Source of the DNA: Flavisolibacter sp.
GTDB taxonomy: Bacteria; Bacteroidota; Bacteroidia; Chitinophagales; Chitinophagaceae
NCBI GenBank assembly: GCA_045805145.1
Contig: JBJMLU010000130.1
Span: forward strand, 5,392 to 69,391
Direction: 5' to 3'
Length of the DNA: 64,000 bases
Part shown: positions 4,683-58,710 of the stretch, piece by piece
Layout: each line of letters begins with the position of its first letter
Numbering within the stretch: position 1 is the first letter of the stretch
Translations under genes and position numbers: made by a program
The notes under the pieces: generated by a model
What the model saw: only the letters and a program-made list of their open reading frames with translations
Databases searched by the model: none
What the model was told of the DNA's origin: nothing

Positions 4683-7043
4683 TCACAACTCCACCTTGTT
4701 TGCCCTGCCTTTCAACATAATTTCATCTGTGGTAGCGACGAATCGTTTACCATTCAGCAGGTAGCTCTTGCCCGCAAGACCTTTAATGTGTAAAGTATAT
4801 TTCCAACCGGATGCAACAGAAGTTAAGGAATAACTGGTCGTACCTCCATTTTTTAGAAGCACAAATGAAATGGTGTTGTTGCCTATGGGCAGATCATATA
4901 TTGCTCCGTGGTCCCAACCGGTTGGGAGATGAGGTGAGATCACAATGGACTTATTGAACGCATCCGGATGAATCCCAAAGAAACGGGTGACCAGCGGAGT
5001 AGCCAATCCATAAATTGTCCAGGCCTGAACAGGACAACCATAATCGGGCATCATTTCAGAAATAGAACCCGGCAGGACCCTGCCGAACGTCTGCACAATC
5101 TTATCTACATACCACTTGGCCTGGTCTATACGATCGTAAGCACATTCGGCCATGGCCTGCACACCAGTGGAAATGGTCATCATATAACGCCGCTCCACAG
5201 CCGAAAGCCAGGGACCGTATTCACCACAATCTTCTTTGCGCACTTTGTTCAGCAAGCGAATGGCTTTGTCCCTGGGCGCTATACCTGTTTCTGCCGGTGT
5301 GCTGATGACCCAGTTTTTATTGGTAAACCATCCTCTTTCTGTTTCAGGAGGAAGAGCAGAGAATTGCCCGATCAGTTTCTCATAAAACTTCTTCTTGTCC
5401 AACAGGAGTCCGGAATCCTTTGCATCAGTCGCACCCACATACAATTGTTCCAGGGCTCCTTTGACGACAGACAAGGCCTGCTCCCGGCTTCCATAAAAAT
5501 CGCAATAGCTTCCTTCCGCCTCATCCCAAAATTGTTCATTGATCTTTTTCTGCAGGACCGATGCTTTTTGATGATAGTCCTGTTCCAATTCTTTCTCTCC
5601 AAATATTGCCGCCATCTTCGCTGTTACTTCCAGGTCCTGCTGCGTGTATACCGCCACATCAATCAGTTCGGCACTGAGTCCTTTTACTTCCATGATCCCA
5701 TAACCTTCGGGAAAGAAGTTTTTGTTTTGATCCTGTTTGGTCAGCAGCCAGTTGATGCCCTTGCGGATGTAGGGATACATTTCGCGGAGAAAGCTTGTAT
5801 CGCCTGTCCACTCGAATACCTTCCAAACCGCCAGAGCAAAATGTGGCGTCTCCTGGGCATTTCCTTTGTTGTACACGAATCCGTTCGAAGACATTTCATG
5901 AATGATGCGTCCATTCCCATTGGCTTTTTCAGAAACCTTTTTAAGGAGCCGGAGCGTGGACTTCGCCAGTTCCGGATCGCCCGATGCCACTACACCCTGT
6001 AAGGCATAGGAATTATCACAACCAAAAAGCCAGGGATATTCTATGGCCCCTGCGCCCAGAAAGCGGCCCAATCCGGGAAGCTCACTCACCAGCCATTCGG
6101 TATTCAGTTTCCCCCAGGTATAAGCCTGTTGCAGGTCCTTGTCTGGAATATCAACCCTTGCACGATGGATGATGGCTGCGTAATGTTCTTTTTTCCTGTT
6201 CAATAATTGCCTGTAGTTCTTTAAAATGTTTTCATAATTGGCGTGTGCCGTTGAAAAATCTTTATTGGAGCCAGTGATGACAAATACTGCGGTCAGCGTT
6301 TGTTGTGGCTCGATTGTCAACCGATAACTAATGGATGCGGTTTGGCCCATCCCCATGGTTTCAATAGGAGCCATGGCCTTTGTGTGATGATGGACCGCGG
6401 GTAAGGGCGATCCCAGTAAGGTGAACCAGGGATGACGTGTATCTTTTGCCACCAACATGTTTTTATCTCTCATCCAATAAACGGTATCTACAGCGTCGAT
6501 GATGTTATTTTCTTTGGAGAACCATACGGGGCTGAGATCTGATTTGATCACAAACTCTAATTGCAGCACACGCAACCGTGCAGTTGTATTTTTCAGTTGG
6601 TATTGAACCACCATGCCCTCCTTGCCCTGCGGACAAAACTGAAATCGCTGCGCTTCAATGCCGTCTAACACCGGCGCATACCTGAATCGATTACCATAGG
6701 GATAGTTGGTGAATTCACGGGCATCCTTCAACCAGGCTTCTGAGGTTCCGTCCGCATCGGTAAGCTTTAGCCAAAAGCCATCCATTAGTTTGAGGGGAGG
6801 CATCCACAATCCGCCCATTTCTCCTGGTACATGCCCACCCAGGTCAGGAAAATTTCCATCTTGTGTTCCCACCATATAAGTTCTGTCACCTGCGGTGAGA
6901 TAGGGCTTATTCCTGTTCTGTCCTTTGTTGGAAATACCAGCCATGATTTGATTCACGTACGTTTCACTGCTTTGCGCAAAGGCCTGCTGCAGCTGTAGCA
7001 GGAACGCAAGGATCATGATACCGATTTTGCCATCTGTTGCCAT
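4683..7043 (-). CDS. Secreted (alpha/alpha)6-barrel glycoside hydrolase (amylo-alpha-1,6-glucosidase / GH63-like)
   Basis: Signal peptide ending AFA-Q. YPWLFGCDNSY, GRIIHE and GSISEMMPDYG..QAW motifs. Exact GH family uncertain. Confidence 0.72.
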   Translation of the reverse strand: MATDGKIGIMILAFLLQLQQAFAQSSETYVNQIMAGISNKGQNRNKPYLTAGDRTYMVGTQDGNFPDLGGHVPGEMGGLWMPPLKLMDGFWLKLTDADGTSEAWLKDAREFTNYPYGNRFRYAPVLDGIEAQRFQFCPQGKEGMVVQYQLKNTTARLRVLQLEFVIKSDLSPVWFSKENNIIDAVDTVYWMRDKNMLVAKDTRHPWFTLLGSPLPAVHHHTKAMAPIETMGMGQTASISYRLTIEPQQTLTAVFVITGSNKDFSTAHANYENILKNYRQLLNRKKEHYAAIIHRARVDIPDKDLQQAYTWGKLNTEWLVSELPGLGRFLGAGAIEYPWLFGCDNSYALQGVVASGDPELAKSTLRLLKKVSEKANGNGRIIHEMSSNGFVYNKGNAQETPHFALAVWKVFEWTGDTSFLREMYPYIRKGINWLLTKQDQNKNFFPEGYGIMEVKGLSAELIDVAVYTQQDLEVTAKMAAIFGEKELEQDYHQKASVLQKKINEQFWDEAEGSYCDFYGSREQALSVVKGALEQLYVGATDAKDSGLLLDKKKFYEKLIGQFSALPPETERGWFTNKNWVISTPAETGIAPRDKAIRLLNKVRKEDCGEYGPWLSAVERRYMMTISTGVQAMAECAYDRIDQAKWYVDKIVQTFGRVLPGSISEMMPDYGCPVQAWTIYGLATPLVTRFFGIHPDAFNKSIVISPHLPTGWDHGAIYDLPIGNNTISFVLLKNGGTTSYSLTSVASGWKYTLHIKGLAGKSYLLNGKRFVATTDEIMLKGRANKVEL

Positions 7044-21686: not shown

Positions 21687-24600
21687 ATGAGGCTTTGCAT
21701 CCTGATTTTATTGTTATCCGTCTCTATCATTTCTTTGGCCCAAAAAGAAACCACCCACTGGTTCTTCTCCGGTGACCAAGCTCTCATTACGCCCTCCGGC
21801 ATCAGCAATGCCAACCCTTCCGGCATCTCCCAACAATTTTATCCCGGAGCGGCCAGCACTTCGGTCTCCGATGCTGCAGGCAACCTGCTGTTCGCTGCCG
21901 ATGAAGCCACCATCATCGATCAAAACTATTCGGTCATGCCCGCACTGGTGAACAATAAATTGCAGGGCGGCTCTAAAGTTCTTTCCATCAAAATTCCAGG
22001 CTCGCAACGCTACTATGTTTTTTATGCCAACACCACGAGCTATTCTGCCAACAGCCAGTGGAACCTGAACTACGCCATCGTGGACCTTTCCCTGAATAAT
22101 GGCAAGGGTGATGTCACCATCTTCAATCAACTGATCGACAGCAATCTTTCGCGGGCCTTCACCCTGGTGCAATCAACGAACAGCGAAGATGCCTGGCTGG
22201 TCACACACCGCTGGGGAACCACCCAGTTTCTTTGCTACAAGATCACGAGCGCTGGTTTGAACAGCACGCCGGTCGCCTGCAACGCAGGCACGGTGGCCAC
22301 CACGGGAAATTATATTTTTGCAGACCTGAAAACTTCCCATGACGGGTCCATGATCGCCGGTCTCGCCTACCGCGATTACACCGTCTTCTTCGCCGAAACA
22401 CATGACTTTCTGGAAGTATTCAATTTTGATTTTGCCAGCGGAACCCTCACCAGCAAGGTCAGAACGCTTCGGGACGTCAGGTATTTCAACTCGCTTCAAT
22501 CCGTCGAGTTTTCTCCCGACAACCGCCTGTTGTATGCTGGCTTCATGACCCGTGTGGACGGACTCCAACCCTGCGGCTTCGGCGCAGGAAATATTTTCCA
22601 GTACAATTTATGTTACACCGATTCTGTCACCTTCACCCTAAACGCCATGGTGGTCGCTACCGACTTCCAGTTCTGTGGACCATCGGTATCCTGGGGCCGG
22701 CTGCAGATCGGCGCAGATAAAAAGATCTATGTTCCCTATACAGGAACCATGATCTCCCGGATCAACAATCCTAACAGAATTGGTAGCTCCTGTAATTTTG
22801 AATTCGATGCGCACCGCCTGCAAAATGGCAATTACGCCAACATGGTCACTCCGAATTTTCATCACAAGCTGGTGGAAAAGGCGGTAAAAAATAATATCAA
22901 TTATAAAGGCGGCTGCTTTCCCAATCCCACCAGTTTTTCTATCACCAACGACACCATTACTTCCGTTCAATGGGATTTTGGTGATCCTTCCAGCGCTTCC
23001 AATACATCAACCCTGCTCAACCCACAACACAGTTTCAGTCATCCAGGTGTCTTTACAGTGAAGGCAAATTTGTTCAATACCCTCGGAAGCCTAATCGATA
23101 CCCTATCGGAGCTTGTCGACATCAAGGACCCTGCCCTTCGCCTGCTGCATGAATATCCAAAGGACACGAGTTTTTGTTCGGGCAACAGCCTGCAGTTGAA
23201 ACTGCAGGTGGTAAATGGCATCTTCGTTTGGAAGACGCGATATGCCTGGGATGGACAACTTCATTACAACGCTACCGCCGACAACTTTTACATCAATGGC
23301 ACAGGAACCTATGTCGTGGAGCTCCACCAGAACGATTGTGAGGGTTGTACCCTCATTGATTCCATTCATGTGACAGTACTACCGGTTCCTGTTGCCAACC
23401 TGGGTTACGACCGCAACCTATGCACCGGTGATTCGCTGGAGCTGAAATTTTTTGATACGTCCGCCAGATACATATGGAGCACAGGCGATACATCGATGGG
23501 GATTTGGGTTCACCAGGGCGGAAGCTATTGTGTGCAAGCGGAAATCGACCACAATGGATGTCCCAAACGGGATACGATCGTGATCAACTCTGTTCCCGGC
23601 GTTCATTTTTCATTGCCCAATGATACCACCTTATGCAACAACTCCAGTTTGCGGCTAGACCCCGGCGTTAATAACGCCGGTTATTCCTGGCAAAACGGAT
23701 CGGCACAAAACTTCTTCACGGTCACGAAGCCCGGAACCTATTGGGTGCAGATCACCAATTCCAATTTTTGCAAGGCTTCTGATACCATCCATGTGTCCTA
23801 CGTGAATGCACAACAGGTTTTTCTGGGGAACGATACCACTTTGTGCCTCGGTGATTCATTGCTTCTGCAAACCAGTGTGGACCATGCACACTATTTATGG
23901 AGTTCGGGGAGCACCGATAGTTTACTGATAGTCCATCAAACCGGAACGTACTGGATCTATGTGGACAATGGCAGTTGTGCGGTGAACGACAGCATCAATA
24001 TAAGTTTCCATCCACCACCTTCCGTTCAACTCGGAGCGGATACGCTCTTGTGCCAGGGATCCTCACTCACACTAAAGATGCCTTTACCTAATTCAACTTA
24101 TTTGTGGAGCAATGGTTCATCAACAGACTCCTTACCGGTAAACAGCGCAGGACTTTACTGGTTACAAGTAAACCAGGCAGGGTGCAAGGCCAGGGATAGT
24201 ATCCAGATAAACTATCAACCCAGGCCTCTGCTGAACCTGGGTAAGGACACCTCGCTTTGCAGCAACAGCAGTCTCGCCCTGAATGTGTATCAACCATCCA
24301 TCACCGCCTATCTCTGGCAGGATGGAAGCATTCAGTCCAATTACCTCGTAACAAAAAGTGGATGGTACTGGGTTCAGGTCCGGGGAAACAATGGCTGTAC
24401 CAATAGGGACAGTCTGCTCGTTCAATCCCTTCCCTTGCCTTCGTTCAGTCTCGGACAGGATACAATACTATGTGAAGGAGATACCAGATCCTATCAGTTC
24501 AATTTGTCCAACGCTGCTTATCTGTGGAGCAACAACAGCACGTCCAATTCCATGGTGATCCATCAGTCGGGGCTCTATTGGTTAGACGTCATGCAGAATG

Positions 24601-43165: not shown

Positions 43166-46100
43166 ATGACCTATGCCGAACTTCAGGTAACCTCCAATTT
43201 CAGTTTTCTACAGGGTGCTTCTCATCCTGAAGAACTGATGGAACAGGCTGCAGGCCTGGGTCTGCAGCAAATAGCAATAACCGATGAAAACAGTTTTGCA
43301 GGACTGGTTCGTGGACACATGGCAGCAAAAAAATCCGGACTTCGCTTTATTCCAGGTGTCCGGCTTCAATTGCTTGATGGAGCAGGACTACTGGCTTATC
43401 CAACCGATAAAAATGCTTATTCCAGACTTAGTGCACTCCTTACCAAAGGAAACCTTCGTACAGAAAAAGGAAACTGCCATTTATATAAACAGGATGTGTA
43501 TGAACATGCAGAAGGATCTGAATTCATCGTCATTCCTCCCTGCTGTTTAAATGAACGTTTTGATTTTGCTGATTCATTTAAAAACCTTCTTAACGAATAC
43601 AAACAATCACTGGGTGAACATCTCTACCTCGCAGCTACCAGACACTATCTTGGTGATGACAGCAAACAACTACACCGTATTTCCCAATTATCTTCCTCCT
43701 TCGACATTCCGATGGTTGCCACGAACAATGTTTTTTATCATCACCCCGATCGAAGACAGCTTCAGGATGTTCTCACCTGCATTCGTGAAAAATGTACCAT
43801 TCAAACAGCAGGGTTCCGTCTTCATCCCAATGCTGAACGTCACCTGAAACCGGCGCAGGAAATGATTCGACTGTTTCGCCAGTATCCTGAAGCCATTCGG
43901 AACACAGAAAAAATTGCAGGGCTGTGCCGGTTTTCTCTGGACAGTCTTCAATATGAATATCCCCGTGAGATTACAACCGACGGCCGTACACCGCAGGAAG
44001 AACTATGCTACCGGGTATGGATATGCGCAAAGGAAAGGTTTGGCGAAAACATACCAGAAAAGATTACCCAGAACATTCACTATGAACTTTCCTTTATTGA
44101 GCAAATGAATTATGCGGCTTATTTTCTTACAGTTTACGACCTGGTTCGTTTTGCAAGAGAGCGCGGCATACTTTGTCAGGGAAGAGGATCTGCTGCTAAT
44201 TCAACAGTTTGTTATTGCCTGGGCATTACTTCGGTTGATCCCACAAAATTTGATTTACTATTTGAGCGTTTTATTTCTTCTGCACGCAATGAACCTCCGG
44301 ATATTGATGTAGACTTTGAACACGAAAGAAGGGAAGAAGTGATCCAGTACATCTATGAAAAATATGGACGCGACCGTGCGGCCATCGTTGCCACCGTTAC
44401 CTGTCAGCATCTCAAAGGAGCCATCAGGGATGTAGGAAAGGTCATGGGTTTATCCATTGATACCATCAACCATCTTTCCGGTTCCGCATGGTTTACCGAT
44501 GAACAGTTTGGAGAAAGCCAGCTTGCAGAACAGGGACTCAATCCGCACGATCAGCATCTTCAGAAAACTTTGATGCTCACAAAAGAGTTCATGGGGTTTC
44601 CAAGGCAATTGGGTCAGCATACCGGAGGATTCGTGATCACGGAATCAAAACTTTCTGATCTCTGTCCCATTTTGAATGCAAGAATGGAAAACAGAACTTG
44701 TATCGAATGGGACAAGAATGATATTGACGCATTGGGATTTTTGAAGATCGATGTACTGGCCCTGGGCATGCTTACCTGCATTCGTAAAGCTTTTGATCTG
44801 GCAAAAGAACATTATGATCTTGATCTTACATTGGCCAATATTCCCCAGGATGACAAGGCTGTATATGATATGATCTGCAAAGCAGATACTATTGGTGTAT
44901 TTCAGATTGAAAGCCGCGCGCAACAGGCCATGCTTCCGCTGCTAAAGCCCAGAAATTTTTATGATCTGGTGATTGAAGTGGCCATTGTTCGTCCGGGTCC
45001 CATTCTTGGAGACATGGTGCATCCTTATCTGCGAAGAAGAAATGGAGAAGAGCCGGTGGATTATCCATCCAAAGAACTGGAAGAAATTCTGGGACGCACA
45101 CTAGGCATTCCTCTTTTCCAGGAACAGGCGATGAAGATCGCTATTGTTGCTGCAGGTTTTTCTCCAACAGAAGCAGATGCCCTGCGAAGAAGCATGGCCA
45201 CTTTCAAATTGCAGGGAATGGTATCGAAGTTCCAGGAAAAACTCACCAGCGGAATGAAGCGCAATGGTTATAGTGCTGAATATGCGCAAAGGGTGTTTCG
45301 TCAGCTCGAAGGATTTGGCAGCTATGGATTTCCCGAAAGTCATGCGGCGAGCTTTGCTCTTTTGGTCTATGTTTCTTCCTGGATCAAATGTTATTACCCC
45401 GATGTATTTGCCTGTGCTCTGTTGAATAGTCTGCCCATGGGATTTTATCAGCCCGCGCAAATAGTAGATGATGCCAAAAAACATGGAGTGGAATTAAGAC
45501 CAGTCGATATCAATTTTTCAAATTGGGACAACAGGCTGGAAGAACGATCAGGAAGTTATTGTGCACTTCGATTGGGCTTTCGACAAATCAATGGATTGCG
45601 GGAGGAGGATGTGAAAGTATTGATCGCAGCCAGAGAAAATAATTATTCTGGCGTCACGGCTCTGAGAGATACAGGGCTTTCAAAATCAGCACTGGAAAAA
45701 CTTGCGGATGCCGATGCCTTCCGTTCCATTGGACTGGACAGAAGAGCAGCACTTTGGGAAATTTCCACGATGGATCATCCGGAAGCTTTATTCAAAGGAA
45801 AGAAGACAGAAGAGGAAGCAGTTGACTTGCCGCAAATGACATTGCCGCAACATGTGGTGCAGGATTATCAGAGCCTTTCTCTTTCACTAAAAGCACATCC
45901 TGTGAGCTTTTTGAGATCCAAACTCGATCAGTTGCATGTGGTTCCTGCAAAAAAATTAATGGAATACAAGGATGGCATGATGATCAAAGTTGCGGGACTC
46001 GTTCTCGTGCGACAGCGTCCGGAAACCGCCAAGGGCGTGTGTTTCATGACCATTGAAGATGAGGGAGGTTTTGTGAACCTGGTGATTTTTCAAAACCTGT

Positions 46101-46333
46101 TTGAAAAATATAAGAAGCAGGTATTGCAGTCAAAACTGATCATGGTGGAAGGAAGGCTGCAACGTGAAGGTGATGTGATCCATGTCATTGCCTCTTGTTG
46201 TCATGATCTTACCAAATGGTTGCGCGTTCTGCATAGGCCTGAAAATGTTGCAACAAAAATTCCGACACTGGAATTTAACCAGAAGAATGATGTTAAAAAA
46301 GATGTATTTCCTGGATCAAGAAATTTTAGGTGA
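43166..46333 (+). CDS. dnaE2: Error-prone DNA polymerase III alpha subunit DnaE2 (ImuC)
   Basis: YAELQVTSNFSFLQGASHPEEL, QGRGSAANS, EPPDIDVDFEHERREEVIQY, GFPESHAASFA, OB fold RQRPETAKGV, C-terminal SRNFR. Confidence 0.96.
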   Translation: MTYAELQVTSNFSFLQGASHPEELMEQAAGLGLQQIAITDENSFAGLVRGHMAAKKSGLRFIPGVRLQLLDGAGLLAYPTDKNAYSRLSALLTKGNLRTEKGNCHLYKQDVYEHAEGSEFIVIPPCCLNERFDFADSFKNLLNEYKQSLGEHLYLAATRHYLGDDSKQLHRISQLSSSFDIPMVATNNVFYHHPDRRQLQDVLTCIREKCTIQTAGFRLHPNAERHLKPAQEMIRLFRQYPEAIRNTEKIAGLCRFSLDSLQYEYPREITTDGRTPQEELCYRVWICAKERFGENIPEKITQNIHYELSFIEQMNYAAYFLTVYDLVRFARERGILCQGRGSAANSTVCYCLGITSVDPTKFDLLFERFISSARNEPPDIDVDFEHERREEVIQYIYEKYGRDRAAIVATVTCQHLKGAIRDVGKVMGLSIDTINHLSGSAWFTDEQFGESQLAEQGLNPHDQHLQKTLMLTKEFMGFPRQLGQHTGGFVITESKLSDLCPILNARMENRTCIEWDKNDIDALGFLKIDVLALGMLTCIRKAFDLAKEHYDLDLTLANIPQDDKAVYDMICKADTIGVFQIESRAQQAMLPLLKPRNFYDLVIEVAIVRPGPILGDMVHPYLRRRNGEEPVDYPSKELEEILGRTLGIPLFQEQAMKIAIVAAGFSPTEADALRRSMATFKLQGMVSKFQEKLTSGMKRNGYSAEYAQRVFRQLEGFGSYGFPESHAASFALLVYVSSWIKCYYPDVFACALLNSLPMGFYQPAQIVDDAKKHGVELRPVDINFSNWDNRLEERSGSYCALRLGFRQINGLREEDVKVLIAARENNYSGVTALRDTGLSKSALEKLADADAFRSIGLDRRAALWEISTMDHPEALFKGKKTEEEAVDLPQMTLPQHVVQDYQSLSLSLKAHPVSFLRSKLDQLHVVPAKKLMEYKDGMMIKVAGLVLVRQRPETAKGVCFMTIEDEGGFVNLVIFQNLFEKYKKQVLQSKLIMVEGRLQREGDVIHVIASCCHDLTKWLRVLHRPENVATKIPTLEFNQKNDVKKDVFPGSRNFR

Positions 46334-46345
46334 GAGAAAAATAAA

Positions 46346-46393
46346 AAACGCAAAGGACGCGGGGGACGCAAGGAGGGAGACGCAAAGGTTCGC
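46346..46393. repeat. Isolated CGCAAAG-family arm after the dnaE2 stop
   Basis: 48 bp with one mismatch to 47725-47772 (direct), and an inverted match to 48086-48130. Confidence 0.85.
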
Positions 46394-46532
46394 AAAGCTT
46401 TGTATGTAAAATTCCCCTGCTTTCATTCCCGCCGGGCAGAACAAATTTTTCTTTCTCCTCGCTCCTTGGTTTTAAATTCTTCATGATTCACGTTTCCCCA
46501 TTCATGAAACGATTGAGGCTTGACGATATTAT

Positions 46533-47003
46533 TCACGCTTGACGCTTGACGATTGACGTCTTTATTCTCAGATCATAGACAAAATCAGTTTTGGAAATGA
46601 TCTTCACCCATTGAATATCCTTATGAAGTGGGTTGATGAGAAAATTATTTTCTTCCGGAAGAACCGCAGAAGGAAGTTGGATGATGAGATGTGACTTCAA
46701 CAATTCTGTTCCGAAATCACGGGTGGAAGCAGGAGCAGGACTGTCGCGCCAGTTGCCGGGAATCTCACTGATAGCAGCTGAATAAATTTTCTTGTCGGGA
46801 ATTTCCAGCGTGATCATGCTGAGGGCTCTTGGAATTTCATCGATACCCACATTCACAGTGTACTCGAGCAAGGCCAGCGCGCGGCTTTCCGAAGCATAGA
46901 TGCAAGGAATGCCTGTCTGATTCCATCTTCCTCCATGAAGCCTGGCTCCTTCTCCACTCAGGTCATCCGACCATTTGGTTCTTGCCAATCGGTACACCAG
47001 CAT
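46533..47003 (-). CDS. RES domain toxin (ParT/MbcT-like NAD+-consuming family)
   Basis: MLVYRLA (R), SGEGARLHGGRWN..IYASESRALALLE (E), PSAVLPEENNFLINPLH (S/N). Confidence 0.92.
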   Translation of the reverse strand: MLVYRLARTKWSDDLSGEGARLHGGRWNQTGIPCIYASESRALALLEYTVNVGIDEIPRALSMITLEIPDKKIYSAAISEIPGNWRDSPAPASTRDFGTELLKSHLIIQLPSAVLPEENNFLINPLHKDIQWVKIISKTDFVYDLRIKTSIVKRQA

Positions 47004-47004
47004 A

Positions 47005-47529
47005 TCAGGAGTATACACCGTAGTCGATACGGCCAATGAGGTTTTTCACTTCTTCGCGGCCAAACTGGTTGTGCAGCAGTTCAAAGGGCGTTGATCCACC
47101 AAGTGCCTTATTCTCACGGAAGATCCATTCATTGAAATCTTCACTGTTACCAAATACTTCATAGCCATAGGAATAAATATCCGCGAGTCCCATGATGCGT
47201 TCACTAAGATCTCCGGAAAACTTAGCTGCACCTTTTTTATTGATCAGGGTGGAACGCGCTACATTCAAGACAGTAGCCAATTGATCGTAATCCAGTCCTG
47301 CTTTTTGTTTGAGCTGCTCGAGGTGCTTTTTTGAAAGTCCCCCTTCAATCAGTTTCATTTTTTCCATGGAAGTAAGCTTGCTCTCAGGAATGGAGCTGGC
47401 TTCCATCAGCACAACACGTGCAGGCGCGCCTACCGGTTTTTTTGCCGCACTCTTCCCTCTTCGGGGAAGCAGGGTCACTGATTTTGCAGGAGGAGAATAG
47501 GCTTTTGATTTTTTTTGATTCCGTGCCAT
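47005..47529 (-). CDS. Xre/MbcA/ParS family antitoxin
   Basis: HTH region GLDYDQLATVLNVARSTL. C-terminal EVFG..FNEWI..NKALGGSTPFELL..GREEVKNLIGRIDYGVYS. Confidence 0.92.
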   Translation of the reverse strand: MARNQKKSKAYSPPAKSVTLLPRRGKSAAKKPVGAPARVVLMEASSIPESKLTSMEKMKLIEGGLSKKHLEQLKQKAGLDYDQLATVLNVARSTLINKKGAAKFSGDLSERIMGLADIYSYGYEVFGNSEDFNEWIFRENKALGGSTPFELLHNQFGREEVKNLIGRIDYGVYS

Positions 47530-47575: not shown

Positions 47576-48258
47576 GGGTTTCACGCAAACCTGCCTGCCG
47601 GTAGGCAGGGACGCAAAGGAAAGGAAGACGCGAAAGTGTTCGCTTCGCTCAAGTGAAGGGAGTTTTTAAATGCAGTGGGTGCAAAGTGTGGATGTTTTTT
47701 TTAAAGCGGGGGGGGAGAGGTTTTAAACGCAAAGGACGCGGGGAACGCAAGGAGGGAGACGCAAAGGTTCGCGTGGCTCAAGGGTTGTATATGGGAATAT
47801 TTTTTAGAGCAAGAGCGTGCGTTGCAAAGAGATTAAATGCCTCACAGGGTTTATGTTATTTATTTTAGGTGTCTTTGGAACCGGCTGCACTGCTACCAGC
47901 AGCTTTACTTGTATCAGTCACTTGTACTGTAGTGATTCTATTCAGCAAGGCACTACACAATAAATTTAACTTCCAATTCAAAAATCAACTACAACCTATT
48001 TTCACCAACCACCCACAAGGAGTACACTCCCAATTAAAAAAATAAATTAGCCACCCGAAAGCGACATGAACCATTTCTTTCTCTCACCTTTGCGTCTCCC
48101 TCCCTTGCGTCCCCCGCGTCCTTTGCGTTTAAAACCTCTCCCCCCCGCTTTAAAAAAAACATCCACACTTTGCACCCACTGCATTTAAAAACTCCCTTCA
48201 CTTGAGCGAAGCGAACACTTTCGTGTCTTCCTTTCCTTTGCGTCTTGGCGTGAAACCC
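47576..48258. mobile_element. 683-bp non-coding inverted-repeat element (MITE/REPIN-like), copy A1
   Basis: Arms 47576-47768 and 48086-48258 are near-identical reverse complements starting GGGTTTCACGC. Core is homologous to 52230-52522. No target duplication seen. Mobility is inferred. Confidence 0.75.
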
Positions 48259-48341
48259 TATTGACAAAATTTCTTAGAGATGATTCTACTTCCTTCATGC
48301 ATCGGTTCAGGAGAGTTTGGTGTCAGGGAAAAGAAAAGCGA

Positions 48342-48959
48342 ATGCGAAAGGTTTATGCCATCCTTTTGATGCTTTACTGGTGCATTACAACGCATCCACA
48401 GGAAAATAAAGTCCGTTACGAAAATCAGGTCTGGGTCAATCTACCGAGGCTGATTGATCCGGCAAACCCTGGGATAGAAATGGGATATGAAAGAGCTTTG
48501 AGTAGAAAGTTTTCACAAGATGTCATCATAGGGTGGATGCGCCCGGTCTTTCAAACCAATAAGTTTGAAGGCTATCGATTCGGATTAGAAGAAAAAATTT
48601 TTTTGAATAGGCATGAACCGGCACTTTACTTAGCAGCCCAATTGATATACAATCATTCGGCGCTATACCACGTCGATAATTATGGCTATGACAGCACCGC
48701 TAATGCATTCGTTAATGCACCATTTACAATCGTACAGGAAAACCTTTCCCTGAACTTCATATCGGGACTTGTAGCGCATTGGAGAAGAGTTGTGTTGGAC
48801 CTGTATATGGGAATTGGAATCAAATACAGAACCATTCGTCATATCAATAGGAAATATCCCATTCAACCCCGGCTCGGGTTTGATCCCTATCGATCGAGGG
48901 AGGGATCGTCCTGGCAACCAAATCTTCCAATATCCATTCGCATTGGTTTCGCCTTTTAA
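48342..48959 (+). CDS. Putative outer-membrane beta-barrel protein (DUF3575-like)
   Basis: Signal-like N-terminus from MRKVYAILL, alternating beta-strand pattern, C-terminal IRIGFAF. Confidence 0.65.
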   Translation: MRKVYAILLMLYWCITTHPQENKVRYENQVWVNLPRLIDPANPGIEMGYERALSRKFSQDVIIGWMRPVFQTNKFEGYRFGLEEKIFLNRHEPALYLAAQLIYNHSALYHVDNYGYDSTANAFVNAPFTIVQENLSLNFISGLVAHWRRVVLDLYMGIGIKYRTIRHINRKYPIQPRLGFDPYRSREGSSWQPNLPISIRIGFAF

Positions 48960-49096
48960 TTCAGTATTTCGTCCACTTGATCACGACATTCACGTTTGCC
49001 GAATTGACTTCCTGATTCATTCAGTATTAAGGTCTATCAATTATCAACTTTGCCTTGCCGCACACAGACATCAACTTCAAAAAAAATCTCCGAAAT

Positions 49097-49260
49097 GAAC
49101 TTTGCGTTCTTTTGCCCCGCATTTGCGGGGATTATTTCTTTATCTTAAACTTTCCGCATCAAACCACCAGTAACACCAAAAAAATCTCCATCATCCCTCG
49201 CTCTACCCAAAAAATATTTGCGTCTTTGCCTCTTCGCATCTTTGCGTGAAACCCTATTGA
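49097..49260. repeat. Degenerate right arm of the CGCAAAG family
   Basis: CTTTGCGT modules ending GCGTGAAACCCTATTGA (49244-49260), identical to 48248-48264. Confidence 0.7.
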
Positions 49261-49303
49261 AGATTGACGATTTCCGTCTTATATTGAGAGAAATCAATTC
49301 TTC

Positions 49304-50638
49304 TTGTCATCACCCGGATTCAAACGAACACTCAACGCCACCATGCTCTGGGGTCTTGGTGTGGGCTATGTGATCTCGGGGATGTATTTCGGGTGGAACT
49401 TAGGCCTGGAGAAAGGAGGTACATTAGGCTTTGCAATCGCTACTTTCTTCATTGTGCTGATGTATGTGGCCTTTACTTTTAGCTACACGGAGCTGGCCTG
49501 TTCTATTCCAAAGGCAGGTGGTGCTTTTGATTATGCGCACCGTGCATTTGGAAAAAACCTGGGCTTCCTTGCAGGCATGGCCCAGAACATTGAATTTATT
49601 TTTGCTCCCCCAGCAATCGCTTTTGCCATCGGAGCCTATTTCAATTTGTTCTTTCCGCAATTTTCTGTTTTGTCCATCGCCATTTTTGTTTATCTCGTCT
49701 TCACTGCATTAAATATTTATGGAATAAAAGCCGCCGCTTCATTCGAATTGATCATCACCATTCTTGCTGTGTTCGAACTCCTGCTGTTTGCCGGCCTCAC
49801 GCTTCCACATTTTGATGTGGCCAATTTGAAGCACAATGCCTTTCCGCAAAAATGGGTGGGCGTCTTTGCTTCCATTCCTTTTGCCATCTGGTTTTTTCTT
49901 GGCATCGAAGGAGTGGCCAATGTAGCGGAGGAAACCCTCAATCCACAAAAAACCATTCTGCGTGGATTTGGTTCAGCCATTCTTACCCTGGTCGTTCTTT
50001 GTTTTCTTACGTTCGGTGGATCTGTTGGACTTGCTGGCTGGGAAGCCGTAGTGTACAAAGCTGATGGAACAACTTCTGACTCTCCTCTACCACTTGCACT
50101 TTCTCATGTAGTGCCGTCAGGACATTTTTTATACCATCTGCTCATCTCCATTGGACTGTTGGGACTGATAGCATCTTTTCACGGGATCATTCTTGCAGCA
50201 GGAAGATCGAGCTATGAATTTGGACGGGTAAGATGCGCACCACCTATCCTGGGCAGGCTGCATCCGCGATTTCAAACACCGGCAGCTGCCCTTGTATGCA
50301 ATATGTTTATTGGAATTCTGGCCCTGCTCAGTGGTAAAACTTCAGAGATCATTACCATTTCTGTTTTCGGCGCGCTTACGCTCTATATTCTTTCCATGTT
50401 TGCACTATTGCGACTGCGAAAAAAAGAACCTTCGCTTCAAAGGCCCTTCAAGGTTCCCATGTATCCGCTATCTCCCCTGGTTGCACTGATCATTGCTTTG
50501 GTCTCCTTTGTTGCGATGACGATTTATAACCTGGAGCTTGCCCTCATTTATGCCGCTTTGTTGCTTGGATCGTTTTTCATTTTTAAATTGATAGACAGGA
50601 ACAATGCCATCGATCACCATCAAACAAGCCTTCCATGA
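49304..50638 (+). CDS. eat: Ethanolamine permease-like APC transporter
   Basis: LWGLGVGYVISGMYFGWNLG, ELACSIPKAGG, WFFLGIEGVAN.AEE, about 12 TM segments. TTG start. Confidence 0.8.
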   Translation: MSSPGFKRTLNATMLWGLGVGYVISGMYFGWNLGLEKGGTLGFAIATFFIVLMYVAFTFSYTELACSIPKAGGAFDYAHRAFGKNLGFLAGMAQNIEFIFAPPAIAFAIGAYFNLFFPQFSVLSIAIFVYLVFTALNIYGIKAAASFELIITILAVFELLLFAGLTLPHFDVANLKHNAFPQKWVGVFASIPFAIWFFLGIEGVANVAEETLNPQKTILRGFGSAILTLVVLCFLTFGGSVGLAGWEAVVYKADGTTSDSPLPLALSHVVPSGHFLYHLLISIGLLGLIASFHGIILAAGRSSYEFGRVRCAPPILGRLHPRFQTPAAALVCNMFIGILALLSGKTSEIITISVFGALTLYILSMFALLRLRKKEPSLQRPFKVPMYPLSPLVALIIALVSFVAMTIYNLELALIYAALLLGSFFIFKLIDRNNAIDHHQTSLP

Positions 50639-51993
50639 ACACGGATGAAATCATTCAGTATGTCAACGACCATCCTTCCGGAAAAGTGAAGATCGCCTAC
50701 AGCGATGTGGATGGAATACTCCGGGGAAAATATATTGCGCGGGAAAAATTTCTTTCTGCAGTAGAAGGCAATACCAGCTTTTGTGATGTGATCTTTGGAT
50801 GGGACGCAGCAGACCTTGTATACGATAACAGCAAATTTACCGGATGGCATACAGGCTATCCTGATGCTCCTGCAAGAATTGATCTTTCTACTTTCCGGAA
50901 AATTCCGTGGGAAAACAATCTTCCTTTTTTTCTAGGCGAACTGTTGGATGAAAAAGGAGGGCCTTGCGAAATTTGCCCGAGACAACTCCTGAAAAAATTG
51001 ATGCGCACAGCAGATGAAATGGGGTTCACGCCTGTGTTCTCTCAGGAATTTGAATGGTACAATTTTGCAGAGACACCACAAACTGCAAACGAAAAACAAT
51101 TCAGGAACCTGGTTCCGCTCACACCTGGCATGTTTGGATATTCCATTCTTCGCAGCACATTAAAGAATGATTTTTTCTCTGACCTCTTTGAACTCCTCAA
51201 AAATTTTGGCGTTCCCCTCGAAGGACTGCATACCGAAACCGGTCCCGGTACCTATGAAGCAGCCATCATGTATGCCACGCTTCCCGAAGCCTCAGACCGT
51301 GCGATATTGTTCAAGACCGCAGTAAAAGAAATTGCTTACCGTCATGGCATCATGGCCAGCTTCATGGCGAAGATCAGCGAAAATCTTCCAGGTTGCGGTG
51401 GACATATTCATCAAAGCCTTTGGAATAAAGAAGCCGACACCAATTTGTTTTACTCGGAAAAAGATGCGATGAAAATGAGTGAGCTGATGAAGCAATATAT
51501 CGCTGGTCAACTCTATTGTCTTCCTCAAATCCTTCCCATGTTTGCCCCAACCATCAATAGTTATAAACGTTTGGTGGAAGGAGCCTGGGCGCCTACGACG
51601 CTCACCTGGGGTATTGACAACCGCACCGTTGCCCTTCGCGTGTTGAACAACAGTAAAAAAACCTGCAGGCTGGAAACGAGGGTCGTGGGTGCAGATGTCA
51701 ATCCTTACCTGGCCATGGCTGCAGCACTCGGAGCCGGACTTTATGGTATTCGTCACAAGCTGGAATTGAAGCAACCCACAACTAAGGGCAATGGCTATCT
51801 TGATTTTTCCAATGGCCAACTGCCGCGCACACTCGAGGAGGCCACACAGATGATGAAATCATCAGCAGTAGCAAAAGAAATATTTGGAGCAGGATTTACT
51901 GAACACTTCACGCTCACCCGCGAATGGGAATGGAAGCAACACCTAAAAGCCGTTACGGACTGGGAATACCGCAGGTACTTCGAAATTATCTAG
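50635..51993 (+). CDS. Glutamine synthetase-like (gamma-glutamylating) enzyme
   Basis: DVDGILRGK, HTETGPGTYE, PGCGGHIHQSL, NSYKRLV..WAPT..WGIDNRT..RLETRV.GAD.NPYL. Confidence 0.9.
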   Translation: MNTDEIIQYVNDHPSGKVKIAYSDVDGILRGKYIAREKFLSAVEGNTSFCDVIFGWDAADLVYDNSKFTGWHTGYPDAPARIDLSTFRKIPWENNLPFFLGELLDEKGGPCEICPRQLLKKLMRTADEMGFTPVFSQEFEWYNFAETPQTANEKQFRNLVPLTPGMFGYSILRSTLKNDFFSDLFELLKNFGVPLEGLHTETGPGTYEAAIMYATLPEASDRAILFKTAVKEIAYRHGIMASFMAKISENLPGCGGHIHQSLWNKEADTNLFYSEKDAMKMSELMKQYIAGQLYCLPQILPMFAPTINSYKRLVEGAWAPTTLTWGIDNRTVALRVLNNSKKTCRLETRVVGADVNPYLAMAAALGAGLYGIRHKLELKQPTTKGNGYLDFSNGQLPRTLEEATQMMKSSAVAKEIFGAGFTEHFTLTREWEWKQHLKAVTDWEYRRYFEII

Positions 51994-52029
51994 GAGGTTT
52001 CAGGCAAAGGCGTTCCGCCCGCTGGAGTG

Positions 52030-52660
52030 GTTTCACGCAAAGACGCAAAGATTTGAAGGCGCAAAGGGATTTTTTAAATGTAGAGGGTAGGGTTTTTTTA
52101 ATGCAAGGAGAGAGTCTTTTAAATGTAAAGAGAGAGTTTTTTAAATGTAAAGAGAGAGTTTTTTAAACGCAAAGGACGCAGGGAGCGCAAGGAGAGAGAC
52201 GCAAAGGTGTTCGCTTCGCTCACGGGTGGTTGATTTTATTCTTTTGATTCGGAGTGTAGTCTTTTTAATTCTGAGTGTACTGCTTATAGTTAATTACTTA
52301 AAGTAGGTTGAATTGATTTTTGGATTCGATCATGTAGTTCATTTGTGAGATGCCCCGCTGAAAGAACCACTACAGCACAAGTGAGTGACATAAGAAAAGC
52401 TGCTGGCAGTACTGCAGCTGATTACATGAACTTCTTAAATATAAAAAAGGATAAATACTATGAGACATTTTAGTCATCTTATCCAGCGCACGCTGGTCGC
52501 CTTCAGAAAATAATTCCCATACCCACCCGTGAGCGAAGTGAACACCTTTGCGTCTCTCTCCTTGCGCTCCCTGCGTCCTTTGCGTTTAAAAAAACTCTCT
52601 CTCCTTACATTTAAAAAAATCCCTTTGCGTCTTTGTCCTCTTTGCGTCTTGGCGTGAAAC
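52030..52660. mobile_element. 631-bp non-coding inverted-repeat element, copy A2
   Basis: Arms 52030-52229 and 52523-52660 start GTTTCACGC. The left arm carries a tandem expansion of a TTTTAAATGTAAAGAGAGAG-type unit. Core is in opposite orientation to A1. Confidence 0.75.
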
Positions 52661-53552: not shown

Positions 53553-53990
53553 GGTATTAGGTGGAATTGGGAATTAGGAATTAGGAATTAGGAATTAGGA
53601 ATTAGGAGAGAACGGCTTTCTATGAAATTATCAATCCTATTAAATTTATCAAATCTATCTGTGAAGTCTTTTTTTAGTCCGAAAATCCGTATTTAGAGTT
53701 TGGGAGGAAACTGGTAGTTATGAAATCAACAATCTGTAAAATCCCTGATTGTATGGAATGAAACGTTCGGGCGGGCATATTTAGTCCGTGCAATCCGTGA
53801 TATGAAATAGGAAGAGCGTTGCAATAGCAGACAGGCAAGAATAATCGTTTACCGGAAAAATTAATTCTCTTCAACATCTCTTCTTAAACAGGATTGATAA
53901 TTTCATAGAAAACAGTTCTCTCCAAATTTCCAATTCCCAATTCCAAATTCCACCCAATACCCCCAATACCTCAATACCTTAATACCACCC
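53553..53990. repeat. Palindromic element with GGAATTA heptamer arrays
   Basis: Six heptamers at 53563-53604. Perfect 22-bp inverted repeat at 53617-53638 / 53890-53911. Mirrored CCAATTC/CAATAC arrays at 53925-53990. Confidence 0.85.
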
Positions 53991-54827: not shown

Positions 54828-54962
54828 GGCGCGATGATCGTAAAAGGCGGAAGGAATTCAACGCAAAGGCGCCATGACGCGAAGAATATTTTTGGAGGTT
54901 AAAGAAAGTAAGGGCAGAAGGATTGATTGTAATAAAAACTGGAGGAAAGATTCCGGTATGGT

Positions 54963-55349
54963 TCAATAGTTATTCACTTTTCTTTTAAAGCCCTCCTTTA
55001 ACAGCGATACATTAAAATTGATCAAAAAGCCCAGTTGTTTGTTTGCCAATCTCAGGTAAGACAGCAATTGGGCTTCGTGTACTGTAAGCAATACTTCTAC
55101 TGATTTGATCTCAACGATAATTTCATCTTCCACAAGCATATCAATGTAAAAAGATTTTCCTGTATGCTGCCCCTTATAAACCAAAGGCATATGTAGTTGA
55201 TACTTTACTTGAATATTTCTTAATTGAAGTTCTTTCAGTAAAGCATATTCGTAAATAGATTCTAACAGTCCTGGTCCAAGGTATTTATGAACTTCCAGTG
55301 CTGAAAGAAAAATTTGCTTTCCCAAAAATTCACACCTTTCTTTTTCCAT
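54963..55349 (-). CDS. GxxExxY protein (PD-(D/E)XK nuclease-like)
   Basis: VHKYLGPGLLESIYEYAL, IDMLVEDEIIVEIKS, AQLLSYLRL..GFLINF. Confidence 0.93.
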   Translation of the reverse strand: MEKERCEFLGKQIFLSALEVHKYLGPGLLESIYEYALLKELQLRNIQVKYQLHMPLVYKGQHTGKSFYIDMLVEDEIIVEIKSVEVLLTVHEAQLLSYLRLANKQLGFLINFNVSLLKEGFKRKVNNY

Positions 55350-55453
55350 GATTTAAATTCCTTTCTAATCGATCTAGATTATTCTAGTAATCTAGCTCAT
55401 GGAATAAGTCATTCCTTGGTTTTTTTCTATTAAATCCTGGGAAAATTCTCTGG

Positions 55454-55906
55454 CTATTTTGTTGGTTGCTTATACTTAATTCTGGGAAAATTTATAACAT
55501 AGAAAAGGACAAAGACAAGTAGTTGAATTAGGAAAAATAAATAAGGCATCCGACTTGTCGCTACGCTACTATAATTTCTCCAGGCCGTGTATTTTGGGGG
55601 TTGAACCTGAGAATGAGTAGTTAACATGTACCAAGGAAAGAAAAACACAAGGACGACTAAACCACCCAATAAAAAATAAACAATCTTTTGGAGGATAGCG
55701 TTTTTTATAAGATAGGAAAACCGAAATAGGCAACAAAACACCGCCCAGGAAATCAGTTTTGCAATTAATCCTAAGTAAGGATTCATACCAATAACGAACC
55801 AGTGGTGAAACAAACCAGAAGGAATTCCCTGATAGAATAGAAATGTTAGTAGTTCAAACAGGAAAACAATGGCAAAAAAATACCACCAATCTATGATTTG
55901 TCTCAT
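55454..55906 (-). CDS. Hypothetical multi-pass membrane protein
   Basis: About four hydrophobic segments, AT-rich, no family recognised. Confidence 0.62.
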   Translation of the reverse strand: MRQIIDWWYFFAIVFLFELLTFLFYQGIPSGLFHHWFVIGMNPYLGLIAKLISWAVFCCLFRFSYLIKNAILQKIVYFLLGGLVVLVFFFPWYMLTTHSQVQPPKYTAWRNYSSVATSRMPYLFFLIQLLVFVLFYVINFPRIKYKQPTK

Positions 55907-55987
55907 GTATTGTAGTATTCTGTTAGCTCCGCTAATACTCCTAGCGCCCTTGCGCCCTCGCGTTAAATTCCTTGCGCCCCCTCACAT

Positions 55988-58459: not shown

Positions 58460-58710
58460 ACGCAAACCACGCAAAGGATGCGCAGGGAGCGCAAAGTTTT
58501 TTGGTATTGCAGCTTAACCTTTTTTTCGGTTCCCTGCGTCTCACTGCGCCTTTTGCGTTTAAGCTTCGTCTACCATAATATCTTTCCAAATAAGTATTAC
58601 ACCCGATTCTGAAACACTCGTTCTCCGCTCTCTTTCTAGCTCCCGCTTGCTGCCCGTCTGCATCTTCAACTCTTTGCGTCCGTGCCTGCCGGCAGGCAGG
58701 TTTGCATGAA
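58459..58710. repeat. CGCAAAG-family element with local hairpin and terminal arm carrying the 20-bp palindrome
   Basis: AACGCAAA..GCGCAAAG inverted against ..CTTTTGCGTTT. Reverse complement of the right end reads TTCATGCAAA-CCTGCCTGCCGGCAGGCACG-GACGCAAAG. Confidence 0.72.

Follow-up and report, generated by a model that had tools for sequence, protein, structure and literature searches.

Long foldback elements of a Flavisolibacter genome and their possible link to GxxExxY nuclease genes

Two long, non-coding palindromic elements, named A1 and A2, are located in a 64,000-nucleotide (nt) stretch of Flavisolibacter sp. DNA, which is referred to here as the window. Both belong to a family of foldback elements whose ends were also found around genes for GxxExxY proteins, which have a PD-(D/E)XK nuclease fold. 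We see about an even chance that A1 and A2 are gene-less members of a GxxExxY-associated hairpin-repeat system, the symmetry of which is unevenly upheld by exchange between the arms. Coordinates are positions within the window unless a contig is named; the window lies on contig C130 of the source genome (G000), a draft assembly of 5.48 Mb in 253 contigs with 44% GC and an estimated completeness of 99.9%.

Architecture and spread of A1 and A2

A first-pass annotation of the window had described A1 and A2 as palindromic elements with GTTTCACGC ends, and no open reading frame (ORF) or target duplication had been seen. Self-comparison and folding confirmed the location, the ends and the palindromy, and neither a conserved ORF nor a target site duplication (TSD) was detected. 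The arm strings quoted earlier were also correct: both arms of A1 read GGACGCGGGG(G/A)ACGCAAGGAGGGAGACGC, and both arms of A2 read GGACGCAGGGAGCGCAAGGAGAGAGACGC. The parts of the two elements are as follows.

47576 to 48258, no strand: A1, whole foldback element, GG-GTTTCACGC ... GCGTGAAAC-CC
47578 to 47586, plus strand: A1 left end, GTTTCACGC
47590 to 47609, no strand: 20-bp perfect palindrome CCTGCCTGCCGGTAGGCAGG, at the left end of A1 only and missing from the right end
47610 to 47768, plus strand: A1 left arm, with CGCAAAG-type units, a TTCGCTTCGCTCA module and a T-rich module
47769 to 48085, plus strand: A1 centre, non-palindromic and conserved across 17 copies
47908 to 47927, plus strand: A1 core motif CTTGTATCAGTCACTTGTAC, the A1 variant of the Chitinophagales-wide CTTGTGTCACTCACTTGTAC
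48086 to 48244, minus strand: A1 right arm, with 156 of 159 positions identical between the two arms
48248 to 48256, minus strand: A1 right end, GCGTGAAAC, the complement of GTTTCACGC
52030 to 52660, no strand: A2, whole foldback element, between the stop codons of two convergent genes
52030 to 52130: A2 left arm, outer part, with extra TTTTAAATGTAAAGAGAGAG units
52131 to 52229, plus strand: A2 left arm, best-matched inner part
52231 to 52522, minus strand: A2 centre, inverted relative to A1, with 88 to 92% identity to the copies on contigs C187 and C168
52375 to 52394, minus strand: A2 core motif CTTATGTCACTCACTTGTGC
52523 to 52624, minus strand: A2 right arm

A1 extends from the start of GTTTCACGC at 47578 to the end of GCGTGAAAC at 48256, and one to two further complementary bases lead to the limits of 47576 and 48258. 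As single-stranded DNA, it is predicted to fold into one stem of approximately 190 bp (−254 kcal/mol; z = −30.6 compared to shuffled sequences). A2 is located between the end of a glutamine synthetase gene (51993) and the stop codon of a flavin reductase gene (52666). Its inner arm parts (52131 to 52229 and 52523 to 52624) share 96 matches, corresponding to approximately 100 nt at 94%, and contain a 71-nt core that is 99% complementary. The centres of A1 and A2 (approximately 290 bp) are non-palindromic, have 71 to 76% identity and lie in opposite orientations. Furthermore, the two arms within one element are unequal, since the number of T-rich units differs. The conserved, inverted centre, the unequal arms and the one-sided 20-bp palindrome had been overlooked in the first-pass annotation, as had the far larger family to which the two elements belong.

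A genome-wide census, as proposed in that annotation, revealed 17 copies of the centre in the source genome (71 to 92.5% identity), each bounded by GTTTCACGC and GCGTGAAAC at a distance of 550 to 720 bp. The element ends have the form GTTTCACGC-AAGACGCAAAG. With a relaxed pattern (GTTTCACGC followed by GACGCAAAG), 205 ends were found in the source genome and 11 in a reversed-genome control, while a stricter pattern (GTTTCACGCNAAGACGCNAAG, at most 2 mismatches) yielded 137 and 0, respectively. The same end was present in 0 to 10 copies in each of 40 relatives (10 in G008, 7 in G014 and 6 in G004), including 2 to 3 copies in two genomes from other families of the order. With 137 ends here and 0 to 10 in relatives, among them members of other families, we conclude that the end family is of old origin and underwent a massive expansion in this lineage.

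In the source genome, 67 inward-facing end pairs were detected, which fall into size classes of approximately 200 bp, 250 to 420 bp and 550 to 720 bp. The class of approximately 205 bp has its own conserved asymmetric centre, with 70 to 78% identity between copies. At least 67 other palindromes of this genome share these ends but have different interiors, and A1 and A2 are therefore part of a superfamily in which one type of arm surrounds different interiors. The copies of the A family are clustered, with five pairs within 6.1 kb, where approximately 0.3 would be expected by our own calculation; neighboring copies are not mutual closest relatives.

The 20-bp palindrome of A1 was also detected elsewhere. 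As CCTGCCTGCCGGYAGGCAGG, it is present at window positions 47590 to 47609 and 58681 to 58700 (C130:64072), and it occupies one fixed site in the ends (GTTTCACGCaaa^gacgc). Approximately 60 sites were found in the source genome and approximately 16 in the congener G003. Because G003 has no GTTTCACGC ends, the palindrome is an independent tiny repeat. It is present in both arms of 12 elements, but in only one arm of A1 and of six other A copies. At the same site of other ends, a second 20-nt variant, CCTGTCCCGCCAATGCGGGA, was found.

GxxExxY genes and the evolution of the arms

GxxExxY was the only gene found between GTTTCACGC-type ends. In the source genome, a GxxExxY gene (PF13366; C45:21999-22340) is located inside an end pair at 21946 to 22459. 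In G037, which belongs to another family of the order, a PF13366 gene (C258:6907-7257) lies between ends at 6860 and 7388, and in G007 such a gene (C2:142293-142640) has TTTCACGCAAAG on both sides. The window also contains a gene of this kind, which matches PF13366 / TIGR04256 GxxExxY (PD-(D/E)XK fold), in a cassette with the following features.

54846 to 54906, plus strand: left arm of the GxxExxY cassette, 61 nt, 74% complementary
54963 to 55349, minus strand: GxxExxY / PDDEXK_3 nuclease-fold gene of 128 amino acids (aa), between degenerate CGCAAAG-type inverted arms
55918 to 55978, minus strand: right arm of the GxxExxY cassette

In addition to the GxxExxY gene, the cassette (54846 to 55978) harbors a 150-aa ORF, a small membrane-protein gene without a family match. 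The flanks of three of the four GxxExxY genes of the source genome had an inverted-repeat score of at least 37; among 400 control ORFs, 0.75% scored as high. Next to 13 of 20 sampled GxxExxY loci, short units (CGCAAAG, CACAAAG, CACAGAG or GGATTTCACGGATT) formed inverted arrays. Moreover, GxxExxY proteins sharing GTTTCACGC-type ends were most alike (58% and 54%), while those with other arm types reached 45 to 48% and other paralogues of the source genome 24 to 44%. Arms of other types include GGATTTCACGGATT and TAACCACAAAG. Two further GxxExxY genes of the source genome (C123:2714-3439 and C70:19369-20137) are located between inverted arms of 66 nt and 83 nt, respectively, which consist of other units (GGATTTCACGGATT and CCAGGATT).

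A literature search by sequence and keywords yielded no description of the GTTTCACGC/CGCAAAG family. The closest published parallel is the Ssn/NTS system. Ssn proteins are GIY-YIG single-strand nucleases that cut NTS/SRM hairpin repeats; these repeats flank the Ssn genes and are present in hundreds of copies (Chenal et al. 2025, PMC11893778). In both systems, a hairpin-forming repeat is found on either side of a small nuclease gene and also, in hundreds of copies without that gene, around other genes. They differ in the protein, which here is a PD-(D/E)XK GxxExxY protein (PF13366/TIGR04256) known from its sequence, and in the repeats, which here are arrays of 7- to 11-nt units forming arms of 100 to 225 nt with cargo centres.

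Other known repeats are less similar. Repetitive extragenic palindromic (REP) sequences and their doublets (REPIN) with the transposase RAYT (REPtrons; Di Nocera et al. 2013, PMC3733652) are also dispersed extragenic palindromes without target duplication and with arm symmetry, here in some copies, and one domesticated-looking enzyme gene lies between its own repeats. In contrast, the family described here has no Y1 transposase and no GTAG/CGTC tag, and its elements of 550 to 720 bp, with arms of 90 to 225 nt and a conserved asymmetric centre, exceed a REP unit (20 to 40 nt) and a doublet (approximately 70 to 110 nt). [quoted passage not shown] Heptamer arrays in Bacteroidetes and Cyanobacteria (STRR; TAACTGA repeats, MacGregor 2015, PMC4679880) also fill intergenic regions of Bacteroidota with short units, and relatives carry shorter, repeat-free spacers at the same sites. 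However, those arrays are mostly direct tandem repeats beside start codons, whereas here they form inverted pairs on either side of a centre, with irregular distances between units (9 to 13 nt). Finally, 23S rRNA intervening sequences share the architecture of a long stem, formed by inverted arms, that carries a small ORF or a non-coding loop at its tip, but the elements studied here are located between protein genes and not in rRNA helices.

For comparison of the arms, the 17 elements were oriented by their centre, and all 34 arms were compared with each other. For 10 of them, the best match was the partner arm in the same element; this was the case for both arms of A1 and of the copies C132, C177_7915 and C45, and for one arm each of C208 and C240. 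In the subfamily comprising C177_5479, C7_11126 and C5, the arms clustered by side, as predicted by ordinary descent. In the A2-like subfamily, the left and right arm types were exchanged; for the left arm of A2, the nearest arms were the right ones of C10 and C187_35589. The elements C7_5055 and C187_29908 are chimeric, with arms from different subfamilies.

The arms had been proposed to evolve in concert. This was supported in part, since in some copies the symmetry exceeded that expected from independent decay: the difference between the two arms of A1 is 2%, compared with approximately 20% for the arms and 25% for the centre between A1 and its nearest relatives. It did not apply to the family as a whole, in which the partner was nearest for only 10 of 34 arms. 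The annotation had also named arms grouping by side rather than by element as evidence to the contrary, and such grouping was observed in one subfamily, alongside the two chimeric elements. Subfamily-specific substitutions were present in both arms (for example, CGCAAAGGACGCAGGGAGCGC versus CGCGAAGAGCGCGGAGAGCGC), and the 205-bp family showed the same type of both-arm variants (GCCGC/GCGGC, GACGC/GCGTC and GGCGC/GCGCC).

Selection at the RNA level was considered as a reason for arm symmetry and was not supported, given the lack of a G·U preference: the A family had 56 G·U and 59 A·C mismatches, and the 205-bp family 14 and 16, respectively. Thus, selection on a transcript of one strand is not indicated, and the mismatches point to a cause at the DNA level. 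Symmetry of this origin is most simply explained by recombination or gene conversion between the inverted arms, which would also invert the centre. The exchanged arm types of the A2-like copies can be explained in this way, because a flipped centre is the predicted outcome of arm-arm recombination. With regard to an invertible segment (inverton), the indication is an evolutionary one, namely this swap of arm types relative to the orientation of the centre in different copies. Template switching on a folded strand would lead to the same result, and a fold-back single-stranded intermediate, as suggested in the first-pass annotation, may account for the symmetry equally well.

Together, these data suggest the following model. 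The arrays in the arms would be cognate sites of the GxxExxY protein, which, by analogy to Ssn/NTS and RAYT/REP, would cut or mobilize them. The A family would then represent non-autonomous, cargo-swapped members of a nuclease-associated hairpin-repeat system. Each element would originate as a palindrome. Some copies would subsequently be kept symmetric by homologous recombination or gene conversion from arm to arm, which would flip the centre as well, while the remaining copies would decay or exchange arms. An extended version of this model, which we consider speculative and rather unlikely, is that GxxExxY genes and inverted short-unit arrays constitute an undescribed class of minimal selfish element. 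In it, a nuclease of approximately 130 aa would read its own arms, gene-less derivatives would spread by cutting at and copying through the folded hairpin, host motifs such as the Chitinophagales core could be acquired as cargo, and symmetry would be a by-product of hairpin-templated repair.

Insertion sites, core motif and competing explanations

At two sites, synteny was traceable in congeners, and at both the elements are true insertions. On contig C168, a 659-nt element lies between two convergent genes; it starts 1 nt past the stop codon of the first and stops 5 nt short of that of the second. The distance between these two stop codons is 8, 1 and 1 nt in G006, G014 and G002, respectively, while an extra gene is present instead in G013 and G005. 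On contig C177, the spacer (C177:5250-5924) has 659 nt in the source genome and 67 nt in G006, and other congeners harbor other repeats or a 1.5-kb insert. The orthologous spacer contains core-type units with heptamers in G015 and G007, only the 67 nt in G006, and in G014 the 1.5-kb insert, which carries two small genes that may form a toxin-antitoxin pair. The C177 spacer is a recurrent landing or growth site. In line with these empty sites, the description of the elements as non-coding, dispersed and non-autonomous-looking insertions was borne out. An empty site was not found for A2, the flanking genes of which are not syntenic in the relatives, and exact-protein look-ups for close strains retrieved nothing on record.

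Direct repeats indicative of target duplication were found neither at the C168 and C177 sites nor across approximately 60 end pairs. In these pairs, the bases just outside the ends were either unrelated or inverted-complementary (gg/cc, aataatt/aattatt, up to 24 to 40 nt), and such outer complementary stretches usually corresponded to further repeat modules. The elements occupy intergenic gaps nearly completely, and of the 17 copies, 5 lie between convergent, 9 between tandem and 3 between divergent genes.

The most conserved part of the centre is a block of 85 nt around CTTGTGTCACTCACTTGTAC, in which a T-run, ACCAGC and CATCGTYC are also conserved. The pattern YTTGTGTCACTCACTTSTRC was found at more than 120 loci in a collection of species-representative genomes, compared to approximately 9 expected by chance. 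The matches listed were all from Chitinophagaceae/Chitinophagales or unclassified Bacteroidota metagenome-assembled genomes, often with many copies per genome. The core motif loci are intergenic and show no orientation bias relative to neighboring genes. In approximately one-fifth of the core copies, a second related unit (GTACAAGWGTGCGACGCAAS) is present in inverted orientation 30 to 260 nt downstream. Long inverted repeats around the core were detected in 0 of 100 cases in other genomes. The core motif in the A family looks like cargo enclosed by generic arms.

Other possible roles of the core were not supported. The core is not coding: an in-frame ATG was present in only 18 to 26% of 122 copies (any frame), and several copies contained stop codons or frameshifts. 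A small hydrophobic peptide of a type I toxin (Ldr-, Ibs- or Hok-like) was considered for the 29-aa ORF (MKPAAVLPAALLVSLTC...) that is present in some copies of the source genome, but this ORF failed across the 122 copies, and A2 has ATG-TAA. A search against Rfam gave no credible match, and a consensus fold of the core was found on neither strand (alifold energy of about −1.4 on both). Direct repeats around the core were also rejected as a miniature target duplication, since similarity within copies was not above that between copies (p = 0.14). In the source genome, approximately 22 further units of a variant core are present as divergent pairs inside giant palindromes of approximately 700 bp. 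In these palindromes, two divergent units of the variant core (GTTGTGTCACTCCCTTGTAC) flank an AT-rich spacer and are combined with GATGTGA heptamers and a GAGATTGCTTCGCTCCGCTCGCAATGACG module; approximately 11 pairs were found, at C106:48900-50000 (about 160 to 880 therein) and on C10, C64, C168, C208, C222 and C245.

Mobilization by a transposase was weighed against the GxxExxY link. The first-pass annotation had referred to REPINs, and in such a scenario REPIN-like doublets would be mobilized by RAYT, a Y1 HUH transposase whose action on a folded single strand keeps the arms complementary. Hairpin-forming elements, the absence of target duplication, variants that are symmetric between arms and small hairpins near the ends would be in line with this. 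However, Y1/RAYT (PF01797) had 0 matches in the source assembly, although control genomes matched, and TnpB and IS110 were absent as well. Since an assembly that is 99.9% complete has no Y1/RAYT gene, membership in REPIN/RAYT fails; moreover, the ends are not GTAG/CGTC-tagged REPs of 20 to 40 nt, the elements are 5 to 7 times as long as a REPIN and have an asymmetric centre of 290 bp, and their arms are not consistently paired by element. We regard this scenario as highly improbable. It is distinctly unlikely that the elements are ordinary MITEs of a DDE insertion sequence, the autonomous copy of which was lost or not assembled, with the CGCAAAG units as subterminal transposase-binding sites. 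Such an origin would explain the terminal inverted repeats with reiterated subterminal units, the many internal variants behind one end type, the lineage-specific expansion and the empty sites, and repeated IS copies do get lost from draft assemblies. But target duplication was lacking at approximately 60 pairs and at the two resolved insertion sites, only ordinary genes and no transposase ORF were found between inward-facing end pairs, including distant ones, and the source genome has no multicopy family of transposase-like ORFs. The sole gene between such ends is GxxExxY.

Two explanations do not involve a dedicated enzyme. That the elements serve the host as intergenic structures (bidirectional terminators, insulators, or carriers of a regulatory or small-RNA-like core), spread by recombination and with palindromy under selection, seems unlikely to us. 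While they fill whole intergenic gaps, adjoin at least one gene 3′ end in 14 of 17 cases, contain in each arm an inward-facing terminator-like hairpin followed by a T-run, and carry a core conserved across an entire bacterial family, terminator-like matches were not above those in shuffled sequences, and three copies lie between divergent gene starts. Furthermore, the arms lack a G·U bias, neither a conserved fold nor an orientation bias to neighboring genes was found for the core, and congeners manage without elements at the same sites. Alternatively, a resident core could have been wrapped in arms by palindrome-generating replication errors (template switching or quasi-palindrome correction), so that the elements would have grown in situ. 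The armless core-type unit in the C177-orthologous spacer of G015 and G007, the armless cores of other genomes, the unequal module numbers and the palindromy beyond the nominal ends could be explained by such growth. It is nevertheless very unlikely, given that 17 dispersed copies have the full 290-bp centre and arms in common, that congeners have 1 to 8 nt and no core at the C168 site, and that the orthologous C177 site has a core of a different type and orientation.

The GxxExxY-associated hairpin-repeat system remains our preferred explanation, and the following observations weigh against it. The numbers of GxxExxY genes and of ends were uncorrelated across 41 genomes, no remnant of a GxxExxY gene was found in the non-coding centres, and in the source genome only one intact GxxExxY gene has exact GTTTCACGC ends. 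The activity of the GxxExxY family is undocumented in the searchable literature, and its action on the arms is presumed from gene context. A draft of 253 contigs might miss a repeated transposase gene. In addition, the mobile unit is not sharply bounded, as palindromy often extends past GTTTCACGC via more repeat modules, resulting in layered palindromes. The copies are old, with a centre identity of at most 92.5%, which gives no indication of recent movement. Finally, arm exchange would have to account for an uneven pattern, with the partner arm nearest for just 10 of 34 arms and one subfamily grouped by side.

Neighboring features and wider meaning

Single arm modules and an unrelated palindrome were also found in the window.

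46321 to 46393, plus strand: solo inner-arm module with 98% identity to the A1 module, overlapping the dnaE2 stop codon
49100 to 49252, minus strand: solo right-type arm, terminating in GCGTGAAAC
53553 to 53961: separate palindromic element, with arms of tandem GGAATTA heptamers (68 nt, 87% complementary), between the flavin reductase gene and a DUF2807 gene

The region from 43166 to 47529 contains dnaE2 (error-prone polymerase III alpha) and, behind it on the opposite strand, a gene pair for a RES toxin and an Xre-MbcA-ParS antitoxin. The beginning of A1 lies 46 nt upstream of where the antitoxin gene starts. On its other side, a 232-aa ORF (48261 to 48959) without a Pfam or NCBIfam match starts 3 nt past the right end of A1.

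Three results hold irrespective of the link to the nuclease. Long bacterial palindromes can remain near-perfect while their relatives diverge by 20 to 25%, elements were gained at exact gene boundaries, and a 20-nt motif is restricted to Chitinophagales among the matches listed. If the link is true, GxxExxY/PDDEXK_3, a very common "hypothetical" family, would gain a role, and cognate repeats of GxxExxY proteins would make up a large part of those intergenic palindromes and short-unit arrays in Bacteroidota that are so far unexplained. These proteins would then represent a third class of enzymes, besides RAYT and Ssn, that maintain dispersed hairpin repeats, and sequence-specific nucleases of this kind would be candidate molecular tools.

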